The notes below the pieces were generated by a model. It did not search any database, was not told the DNA's origin, and saw only the letters and a list, made by a program, of their open reading frames with translations. Of a stretch of 64,000 nucleotides of DNA, positions 17,163-34,360 are shown piece after piece (the stretch's first letter is position 1; each line of letters opens with the position of its first letter). Where the stretch lies: assembly GCF_003018255.1 (NCBI RefSeq), contig NZ_CP027440.1; one strand, written 5' to 3'. Both the position numbers and the translations under genes were made by a program. Source of the stretch: Escherichia coli (lineage in GTDB: Bacteria > Pseudomonadota > Gammaproteobacteria > Enterobacterales > Enterobacteriaceae).

Positions 17163-18401
17163 TTACTCACTGGAAACCAGTCGTGGCGTGATAAACACCA
17201 CTAACTCGCGTCGTTCATCTTCTTTTCCGTCATGACGAAATAATTGCCCGAACCAGGGAATGTCGCCAAGCAACGGTACGCTATCCTGACCCGATTTATT
17301 TTTACGGGTAAAAATGCCGCCCAGCGCCAACGTTTCTCCGCTTTTGACCTCGACCTGCGTTTCGATCTCCTGCTTATCAATCGCCAACACTTCGCCATCG
17401 GCCTGCTGTAGCACCTGCCCCGGAACGTTCTGGCTGATGTGTAATTTCAGCCGGATGCGACCTTTTTGTAACACCGTGGGCGTAACTTCCATCCCCAGGA
17501 CGGCCTCTTTAAATTCCACCGACGTCGCGCCACTTTCCCCGCTGGAAACCTGATATGGAATTTCGCTCCCCTGTTTAATGCTGGCAGGCTGAAGATGTGA
17601 GGCCAGCAGACGCGGACTGGCGATAATATCCAGCTGCTGTTTTTGTTCGAGCGCGGAAAGCTCAAGATCCAGTAAACGTCCGTTGATGCGTCCAATGTTA
17701 AAACCGACATGCGTTGTCGCCGTCGCTACGGAGAGGTCGCTGCCAAGCGTGGTGACTTGCCCAACGCCACCAGCTTGCTGCGCATCAGCCAACGTCCATT
17801 TCACGCCTAACTCACGCAAACTTTTTTCATTAATGGTGACAATATGCGCCGACAGCTCAACCTGCCCGACCGGCAGATCCATTTGCGCTACCCACTGTTC
17901 AAGCGCGCTTAACGCCGTTTTGTTATCTCGCAGCAAAAGGCGATTGGTGCGTTTATCGACGGTCATACTCCCTTTGGCACTCAGTAGCTTCTCCCCGGCT
18001 TTCGCCAGTTCTCCCGCGTCGGCGTATTGCAGGGTTATACTGCGATTTTCCAGCGGCAGATTTGCCTGCGCCCGCGCCTGCTCCGCCTCCTGACGGGCGA
18101 TATTGTCATTCTGCCAGGCAACGGAATGCACCGAGAGAATGTTGCCCTCCTGGCGCGTTATCAATCCGGCGCTTTTCACTACAGTTTGTAGTGCCTGCTT
18201 CCAGGGAACGTCAGTTAAATGTAACGACACCGTACCGCTGACGTCTGGCGAAACCACCAGGTTCAACTTCTCCTGTTCAGCCAGCGCCTGCAACACCTGA
18301 GCTACCGGAACGTCATCCACCATCAGCGTCACTTTTTGCGGCTTTGCCGCCTGTACGCCGGGTATAAGCATCAACAGTAGTGCGGCTATCCATTGCTTCA
18401 T
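17163..18401 (-). CDS. hofQ: Secretin-family outer membrane protein HofQ (type IV pilus / DNA uptake)
   Basis: 412 aa; signal peptide MKQWIAALLLMLIPGVQA; secretin-like C-terminal region. Confidence 0.9.
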   Translation of the reverse strand: MKQWIAALLLMLIPGVQAAKPQKVTLMVDDVPVAQVLQALAEQEKLNLVVSPDVSGTVSLHLTDVPWKQALQTVVKSAGLITRQEGNILSVHSVAWQNDNIARQEAEQARAQANLPLENRSITLQYADAGELAKAGEKLLSAKGSMTVDKRTNRLLLRDNKTALSALEQWVAQMDLPVGQVELSAHIVTINEKSLRELGVKWTLADAQQAGGVGQVTTLGSDLSVATATTHVGFNIGRINGRLLDLELSALEQKQQLDIIASPRLLASHLQPASIKQGSEIPYQVSSGESGATSVEFKEAVLGMEVTPTVLQKGRIRLKLHISQNVPGQVLQQADGEVLAIDKQEIETQVEVKSGETLALGGIFTRKNKSGQDSVPLLGDIPWFGQLFRHDGKEDERRELVVFITPRLVSSE

Positions 18402-18717
18402 TTGTATCTCCTTGCCGTTGCCACAACCAGTGTGGCGGTTCGCAGTTTGTCCCGGTTCCCAGCGTTAGTGCGTCTGGCGTCAGCTGTAAAATTGTCCAGC
18501 CGTTTTCCAGCACGTCGTTTTGCTGCACCCGTCGCCATTTTTTTTGCCCGTCTTTTATTACACCGATGATGCGCTCACCTCGCCCTACCATCCCCTGATA
18601 GCGCCACTGGCTAAGTTCGCTAATCCGGCATAGATCTTCCGGCGGTTTAAAAGGGTCACGCATACCGGTTAAAAGGCACAATGTAATACCTGCCAACAAC
18701 CAGCGTTTAACCCTCAT
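18313..18717 (-). CDS. hofP: HofP (PilP-like pilus assembly protein)
   Basis: Start trimmed to MRVKRWLLAGITLCLL (lipoprotein-like signal); 134 aa; overlaps hofQ 5' end by about 89 nt. Confidence 0.7.
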   Translation of the reverse strand: MRVKRWLLAGITLCLLTGMRDPFKPPEDLCRISELSQWRYQGMVGRGERIIGVIKDGQKKWRRVQQNDVLENGWTILQLTPDALTLGTGTNCEPPHWLWQRQGDTNEAMDSRTTVDAYTRRTGGKAAKSDADGG

Positions 18718-19147
18718 GCGGCGTCTCCAGTTGTAGCGTGAACAAAAGGTCATCACCTTCCACGCTTAACGAAAAACGGCTCACGCTGACGTTGCGCTCT
18801 GCCAGCCGTGTAAATGCCGACGGCACTGCTTCCCACAGCGTTTTCAACGCCAACTCACCTCCCTGCGCGGATGGATGCCAGTAAACCAGTTGCGCGCCGG
18901 ATAACTGAAAATCCAGTGGCGAAAAGGGCAGCGTTTTTTCCTCGCTGAAGGGAGTGGTGTCAACCAGGCGATACAGTGCGGCCCACTGCTGGTGATGACT
19001 TGCCCGTAGTCGAATTAATGCGTCGCTCTCTTCATGGTGTGTCGATGACAGAAAAATGAGCGTAACTAACATCAGCAACCAGACTGCCCAGCAAAGCTGG
19101 CGGAGGCGGGGTGATGTGGCGAACCACCAGTCAAAGAGCATGTCCAT
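18707..19147 (-). CDS. hofO: HofO (PilO-like)
   Basis: 146 aa ORF with N-terminal TM segment; operon position. Confidence 0.8.
   Translation of the reverse strand: MDMLFDWWFATSPRLRQLCWAVWLLMLVTLIFLSSTHHEESDALIRLRASHHQQWAALYRLVDTTPFSEEKTLPFSPLDFQLSGAQLVYWHPSAQGGELALKTLWEAVPSAFTRLAERNVSVSRFSLSVEGDDLLFTLQLETPHEG

Positions 19148-32291: not shown

Positions 32292-34360
<2,069 letters not shown>

Follow-up and report, generated by a model that had tools for sequence, protein, structure and literature searches.

The genes hofP and hofQ share 89 nt, read from the same strand in two different frames; the overlap is real and is already present in the public annotation. It is explained by the geometry of the two reading frames, by the composition of the HofQ signal peptide and by a dispensable HofP tail, and it is in this sense an ordinary one. 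We consider it likely that both annotated boundaries are right and that the overlap is merely tolerated, as a by-product that serves no evident purpose in itself. The genes lie in a window of 64,000 nucleotides, the whole stretch of DNA that was analysed, from Escherichia coli contig NZ_CP027440.1 (assembly GCF_003018255.1), and the relevant features are as follows.

17163–18401, minus strand: hofQ coding sequence, 412 aa, beginning MKQWIAALLLMLIPGVQA...; outer-membrane secretin (from ORF, Pfam and phmmer)
18313–18717, minus strand: hofP coding sequence, 134 aa and a TGA stop; PilP-like part of the Hof/type IV pilus DNA-uptake machine (from ORF, Pfam and RefSeq)
18313–18401, minus strand: two-frame region of 89 nt; hofQ codons 1–30 (signal peptide and first N0 residues) and hofP codons 106–134 with the stop
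18313–18315, minus strand: hofP stop TGA, formed across hofQ codons D29 (GAT) and D30 (GAC), with T from the former and GA from the latter; part of the conserved VDDVP motif
18316–18402, minus strand: HofP C-terminal tail, residues 106–134 (NEAMDSRTTVDAYTRRTGGKAAKSDADGG); judged a non-functional extension
18348–18401, minus strand: hofQ signal-peptide codons 1–18 (MKQWIAALLLMLIPGVQA); cleavage predicted after VQA
18408–18413, minus strand: hofQ Shine–Dalgarno sequence AAGGAG, 6-nt spacer to the ATG; within hofP codons Q102-G103-D104
18707–18717, minus strand: hofO–hofP overlap, 11 nt
19131–19147, minus strand: hofN–hofO overlap, 17 nt
19670, minus strand: hofM–hofN overlap, 1 nt

The coding overlap in different frames that the first-pass annotation had described proved exact at 18313–18401: the hofP frame, entered at the ATG at 18717 to give a HofP of 134 aa (MRVKRW...), is open to 18313, and the RefSeq (PGAP) boundaries of both genes in E. 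coli are identical to those based on the ORFs. Across the shared 89 nt the second codon position of hofP is the first codon position of hofQ. Within positions 1–50000 of the window (the annotated 50 kb) this is the longest same-strand overlap, the remaining ones measuring 1, 1, 1, 4, 4, 8, 8, 11 and 17 nt. The accompanying statement that it exceeds a usual range of 1–8 nt holds in that 89 nt is the local maximum, although the range itself was drawn too narrowly, since two other hof junctions reach 11 and 17 nt; all the junctions of the hof operon (hofM–hofN, hofN–hofO, hofO–hofP and hofP–hofQ) overlap. The operon is induced by Sxy (PMC3330819, PMC1635313) and hofQ is required for Sxy-dependent DNA uptake (PMC3330819). 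A search of the literature found no paper discussing the hofP–hofQ overlap and no ribosome-profiling or proteomic report on the junction.

A frameshift late in hofP or the loss of a stop there, whether a mutation of this strain or a sequencing error, could also have extended the ORF and would correspond to class iii of a published survey of overlaps (PMC2478687); indels at the A-rich junction do occur in some assemblies, among them a fused HofP–HofQ ORF of 517 aa (29 sequences) and C. koseri NCTC10786. Of 5426 complete E. coli genomes, however, 5423 carry the hofP–hofQ region with an identity of 95 % or higher and those listed are annotated in the same way, the 134-aa HofP forms the dominant cluster (2466 member sequences), and the arrangement occurs in dozens of genera, all of which leaves an accident of this strain with practically no chance of being the explanation. 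The HofP variants of 127 aa in E. coli and 126 aa in Cronobacter differ at the N-terminus, where alternative starts have been called, and not in the tail.

The comparative set consisted of 80 Enterobacteriaceae loci, collected by a scan with one genome per species, and ten more distant loci, which were reached through a HofP profile search followed by contig look-ups; a search with the HofQ protein gave close relatives only. The HofP family is a small one, comprising 184 clusters at E ≤ 0.001. An overlap of 38–140 nt is present in 77 of the 79 Enterobacteriaceae species, and the lengths seen among these non-redundant species are 4, 38, 59, 62, 77, 80, 83, 86, 89, 92, 98, 122 and 140 nt. It measures 80 nt in Pantoea, 92 nt in Cronobacter, 74 nt in Atlantibacter and 62 nt in Buttiauxella. 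The arrangements found among the relatives thus run from a 1-nt gap, in Mixta calida, through a 4-nt overlap of the ATGA form, in loci L049, L052 and L092, to the 140-nt overlap, and HofP itself is correspondingly 130–138 aa long in most orthologues and 103–110 aa in a minority (L049, L052, Mixta and L092). The hofP stop falls at the junction of hofQ codons D29 and D30 in 58 of 79 species and at the adjacent V28|D29 site (GTT GAT) in six more. Nine distinct stop sites were counted in all. Parsimony on a neighbour-joining tree requires the site to have changed at least 16 times and places D29|D30 at the root, which suggests that the long form of the overlap is ancestral and has been kept in most lineages. 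A recent 3′ extension of hofP by frameshift or stop mutation was also considered and was rejected, most orthologues being as long as the E. coli protein; the extension is old and shared.

The reading favoured by the first-pass annotation was that the start of hofQ is a different one in vivo. HofQ could then begin downstream, for example at M27 (ATG 18323–18321) or at the GTG codons of V24 or V28, which would reduce the overlap to about 11 nt or remove it. There is some precedent for this, since a survey of 338 genomes blamed most same-strand overlaps longer than 60 bp on mispredicted starts (PMC2478687), hofQ has in-frame ATG or GTG codons at positions 11, 24, 27 and 28, and automatic callers sometimes pick such starts in relatives, as in Buttiauxella izardii, where the called HofQ is 390 aa rather than 415 aa long, and in locus L093, where a gene of 379 aa is called from an internal start. 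The signals that surround the start at 18401 nevertheless argue against it. At the aligned position the 86 readable loci have ATG (79), GTG (6) or TTG (1), and 85 of 87 loci have a Shine–Dalgarno match of 4 nt or more ahead of the start, in most cases at a spacing of 6–10 nt. A secretin requires a Sec signal peptide, which only the 18401 start provides, and every HofQ homologue (86/86) opens with the layout of one, a basic n-region followed by a hydrophobic core and an end resembling A-x-A. Start, Shine–Dalgarno sequence and signal peptide are conserved across the 86–87 loci; the cleavage site was placed by the AXA rule and not by a predictor. The homology of HofQ to PilQ secretins of solved structure sets in at residue 22–23, directly past the predicted cleavage site (for 6w6m the phmmer E-value is 1e-74 and the alignment runs from residue 23), and Pfam recognizes STN, Secretin_N and Secretin domains. 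HofQ residues 22–28 align to the first N0 strand of the solved PilQ, and initiation at M27 would drop this strand along with the signal peptide and so truncate the domain; no Shine–Dalgarno sequence was seen before M27, which is the nearest downstream ATG. In L093 the real start is an ATG further upstream, at 2811, which opens an unmistakable signal peptide that the internal call cuts off; counted from this ATG the overlap is 98 nt. Misannotation of the hofQ start is therefore not supported by the comparative evidence, and we regard it as very improbable. Class i of PMC2478687, a misannotated start of the downstream gene, was ruled out for this junction on the grounds that the orthologues share the hofQ start and that there is no better-supported start downstream.

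HofP matches the Pfam family HofP (PF10748) over its full length (E-value, 7e-78), and a Foldseek search with its AlphaFold model recovers the PilP structures 3jc8 (chain Pa), 2ivw and 2lc4, as well as 4av2_M and the HR domain of GspC (3oss_C). In an alignment of 78 HofP sequences the last invariant or near-invariant columns are C92, P94, W97, W99 and G103, and no column after G103 is invariant or nearly so; the G103 codon (GGA, 18409–18411) lies within the hofQ Shine–Dalgarno sequence. In the AlphaFold model the pLDDT is 86–94 over residues 31–100, with a last strand at 96–101, and falls below 50 for residues 109–128 and 131–134, where there is no secondary structure. Mean pairwise identity is 0.475 in the HofP domain and 0.26–0.36 in the tail, while in the other frame it is 0.26–0.33 in the HofQ signal peptide and 0.74 in mature HofQ. 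The conserved PilP-like fold of HofP is thus predicted to end at G103 and to be followed by a disordered tail of 29 residues, which we infer to be without function.

The existence of the overlap can be understood from the relationship of the two frames. The spacer between the hofQ Shine–Dalgarno sequence and its ATG sets the ATG on positions 2-3-1 of the hofP frame (aAT Gaa), so that no hofP stop arises at the junction. Further on, a stop in the hofP phase needs a hofQ codon that ends in T, followed by one that starts with AA, AG or GA (K, N, S, R, D or E), and the hydrophobic core of the HofQ signal peptide contains no codon pair able to give one. In E. coli there are three candidate sites before hofQ codon 31 (A19|K20, V28|D29 and D29|D30), of which the third forms the stop (gaT GAc). 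HofP in this way gains its 29-residue disordered tail past the PilP-like domain, and the overlap brings together the signal peptide and the tail; these being the least constrained segments of the two proteins, it is of low cost and drifts in length. In its alternative phase hofQ begins with ATGA, and a change of 1 nt in the spacer would switch hofP–hofQ to the canonical 4-nt overlap.

The length of 89 nt is not beyond chance expectation. When the HofQ protein of the window was held fixed and its synonymous codons were redrawn from the usage of hofQ itself, an overlap of at least 80 nt resulted in 89 % of trials, with a median of 89 nt, and the length therefore needs no special explanation. In the hofP phase the 1239 nt of hofQ are interrupted by 24 stops, which leave stop-free runs averaging 51 nt; of these 24 runs, 4 extend to 89 nt or beyond.

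Conservation of both frames had been proposed as a check, and we approached it through codon-position variability and synonymous diversity as proxies for an overlap-aware dN/dS, since nearly every change that is synonymous in hofQ is non-synonymous in hofP here and the alignment of the signal peptides is gappy. Variability at codon positions 1, 2 and 3 is 0.40, 0.35 and 0.60 in the HofP domain, which is the usual coding pattern, 0.49, 0.48 and 0.39 in the HofP tail, and 0.50, 0.40 and 0.52 when the overlap is read in the hofQ frame. The coding signature within the overlap is that of the hofQ frame only. By these measures no purifying selection on hofP was detected inside the overlap: the tail has no conserved residue, its codon-position variability follows the hofQ frame and its stop has moved at least 16 times, against which stands only the slight drop in hofQ synonymous diversity given below.

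Several measures do deviate slightly in the direction expected if the overlap were maintained. The frame is open for at least 80 nt in 86 % of species as compared to 61 % under a synonymous-codon null, and 3.1 candidate stop sites are passed before stopping where 2.3 are expected, both figures being uncorrected for shared ancestry; a candidate site turns out to be a stop with a probability of 0.24 inside the overlap and of 0.30 further downstream. Synonymous diversity of hofQ is 0.45 in the overlap as against 0.52 downstream (bootstrap interval 0.46–0.58), again with shared ancestry uncorrected, and the reduction is driven by the three columns I5 (ATA), L26 and D29 (GAT). The D29 codon is GAT in 73 of 79 species where 65 % are expected (shared ancestry uncorrected), and I5 is encoded by the rare codon ATA in 56 of 60.

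These figures could reflect selected dual coding or regulation, in which either the HofP tail does some work, for example by contacting HofQ or HofO, or hofP ribosomes, running for 89 nt through the region where hofQ is initiated, cover or expose the hofQ start and so set the ratio of HofP to HofQ. Most Enterobacteriaceae, and Pantoea as well, have the long form, which appears to be ancestral, and in homologous systems HofP/PilP proteins and secretin N0 domains are physical partners (GspC–GspD in 3oss and PilP–PilQ in 4av2, both of which were matched by the model). The tail is, however, predicted to be disordered, varies from absent to 46 residues and has changed its stop independently at least 16 times, several relatives being free of it altogether. 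The codon periodicity follows hofQ alone, and the excesses are small and uncorrected for phylogeny. Among 18 species with an earlier hofP stop, 15 retain GAT at D29. The ATA/NGG pattern of hofQ codons 3–5 persists in L049 and L092, where hofP does not reach it, and this suggests that the constraint acts on the start of the hofQ mRNA rather than on the HofP tail. That the overlap itself is selected, for dual coding or for regulation, is thus in our view unlikely.

A milder form of selection deserves mention, in which the overlap would be weakly kept because hofP ribosomes that cross the hofQ Shine–Dalgarno sequence, the ATG and the first 29 codons modulate synthesis of the secretin. We give this marginally less credence still. 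Were it true, HofQ initiation might, for example, be limited to gaps in the hofP traffic, or the start region might be kept unfolded, and HofQ output would be tied to that of HofP without termination–reinitiation; the claim that same-strand overlaps longer than 60 bp are never genuine (PMC2478687) would then have a conserved exception in this junction.

As to how hofQ is translated, the other suggestion of the first-pass annotation, an unusual translational coupling, is a reasonable candidate: the hofP stop (18313–18315) lies 89 nt past the beginning of the hofQ ATG (18401), a distance that does not fit classical termination and reinitiation, and coupling of that kind is therefore not expected. 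In the minimum free energy fold of 18300–18470 the hofQ Shine–Dalgarno sequence and ATG are unpaired (z = −1.4), which makes independent initiation the simplest expectation; hofQ probably initiates from its own strong, unpaired Shine–Dalgarno sequence and ATG while hofP ribosomes pass through. The same fold offers no support for the idea that folding of the mRNA ties hofQ initiation to translation of hofP.

Long phase-1 same-strand overlaps, produced when the upstream gene is lengthened at its 3′ end, are predicted by neutral models (Fonseca et al., 2013, PMC3887535; Sabath et al., 2008, PMC2542354). The hofP–hofQ pair resembles the overlaps of these models in that the genes lie head to tail in one operon, hofP reads past the hofQ start to the next in-frame stop, composition and codon content account for the length with no need of selection, and the tail is variable and unconserved. 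It differs from most of them in being longer, at 89 nt, and it is unlike an event confined to a single genome, since the overlap persists in at least two families (Enterobacteriaceae and Erwiniaceae). The pair nevertheless fits the models of neutral 3′ elongation; it is not dual-coding in the selective sense, nor does it belong to either of the misannotation classes tested.

In PMC2478687 no same-strand overlap longer than 60 bp was found to be genuine, the longest real one being holD–rimI (32–56 bp); hofP and hofQ are absent from the main text of that paper and from its four text-format supplementary files. Like holD–rimI, hofP–hofQ is a same-strand overlap that is conserved among enterobacterial orthologues and has a length specific to the genus. 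Unlike it, hofP–hofQ is longer, mostly 62–101 nt and thus beyond the 60-bp limit, and whereas both protein ends of holD–rimI are reported to be well conserved, the HofP tail is not. The canonical 4-nt and 1-nt overlaps of the ATGA and TGATG types, with coupling by termination–reinitiation (PMC10666635), share with hofP–hofQ a setting in an operon for subunits of one envelope complex; they differ from it in that the terminating hofP ribosome is far (89 nt) from the hofQ ATG. The short canonical type is itself seen at hofM–hofN (1 nt), and its ATGA form in the orthologues L049, L052 and L092.

The junction also has counterparts in pilP–pilQ and comD–comE, the gene pairs of type IV pilus and competence systems, with which it shares the PilP β-domain fold of HofP, the PilQ-type secretin HofQ and the gene order M-N-O-P-Q. 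PilP lipoproteins carry a lipobox cysteine, and HofP departs from them in having the consensus L-T-G-M, with methionine at the position of that cysteine.

The annotation of hofP and hofQ should therefore stay unchanged. Gene callers with a penalty on long overlaps put the start of hofQ in the wrong place in some relatives (L093 and Buttiauxella izardii), and the signal peptide is then lost. The pair is a counter-example to the rule that same-strand overlaps of more than 60 bp are always errors, and it shows that a long overlap can persist neutrally when a signal peptide is paired with a disordered tail. hofQ contains the final 29 codons of hofP, and hofP in turn contains the Shine–Dalgarno sequence, start and signal peptide of hofQ. 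Because these 89 nt are shared, a clean deletion of hofP removes the hofQ start, and a deletion or N-terminal tag of hofQ alters the C-terminus of HofP.

The hofMNOPQ operon has an overlap at every one of its junctions, the lengths in gene order being 1 nt, 17 nt, 11 nt and 89 nt, and the 17 nt and 11 nt overlaps, like the last, exceed the usual 1-4 nt. The first three are positioned as follows.

19670, minus strand: hofM-hofN overlap, 1 nt
19131-19147, minus strand: hofN-hofO overlap, 17 nt
18707-18717, minus strand: hofO-hofP overlap, 11 nt

The 5′ end of hofQ, which lies within the 89 nt overlap, carries a distinctive codon pattern that recurs across species.

18387-18395, minus strand: hofQ codons 3-5

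The rare codon ATA is used for Ile5 in 56 of the 60 species that have isoleucine at this position, and yet it makes up only 7 % of the isoleucine codons in the remainder of hofQ. In approximately 68 of 79 species the third base of codon 3 is A, and in 67 of 79 codon 4 has the form NGG (TGG, AGG, CGG or GGG). Two related loci (L049 and L092), in which the overlap with hofP is only 4 nt, retain the pattern, and this suggests a constraint that acts on the hofQ mRNA at its 5′ end (A-rich, with rare codons and little structure) rather than on the tail of HofP.

The hofQ start is not always placed correctly by gene callers. In locus L093 (2811-2919) the automatic call begins at an internal ATG and yields a protein of 379 aa as against about 415, and an internal-ATG call in the Buttiauxella izardii HofQ cluster similarly gives 390 rather than 415 aa. 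Both calls sidestep the long overlap at the cost of the signal peptide; the misannotation is systematic and arises from the penalties set on overlaps.

Several sequenced copies of these genes appear disrupted. In the type-strain assembly of Escherichia albertii (NBRC 107761; L007) hofP codon 34 (E34) is replaced by an in-frame stop, and the gene may be a pseudogene. In Citrobacter koseri NCTC10786 (L039, about 2900-2962) an indel within an A-rich run places the hofQ signal-peptide segment in a different frame from the remainder of the gene; as other HofQ sequences from C. koseri are complete (412 aa), the shift must be an error of assembly or else a frameshift peculiar to this strain. A cluster of 29 member sequences (P0076) is represented by a 517 aa ORF joining HofP residues 1-126 to HofQ residues 22-412, in which a frameshift within the overlap links the two frames and destroys the hofQ signal peptide.

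HofP itself has a nearly invariant N-terminal motif, LLTGMRDPF.

18661-18672: L-T-G-M, HofP residues 16-19

PilP lipoproteins have a lipobox with a cysteine, whereas HofP has methionine at that position and, judged from this substitution, is probably not lipidated, in contrast to classical PilP.

Elsewhere in the window, an otherwise core region contains what looks like a small toxin-antitoxin-like insertion, its genes being those given in the matching RefSeq record.

32330-33002: RelE/ParE-family toxin gene and nadS gene, between pckA and envZ
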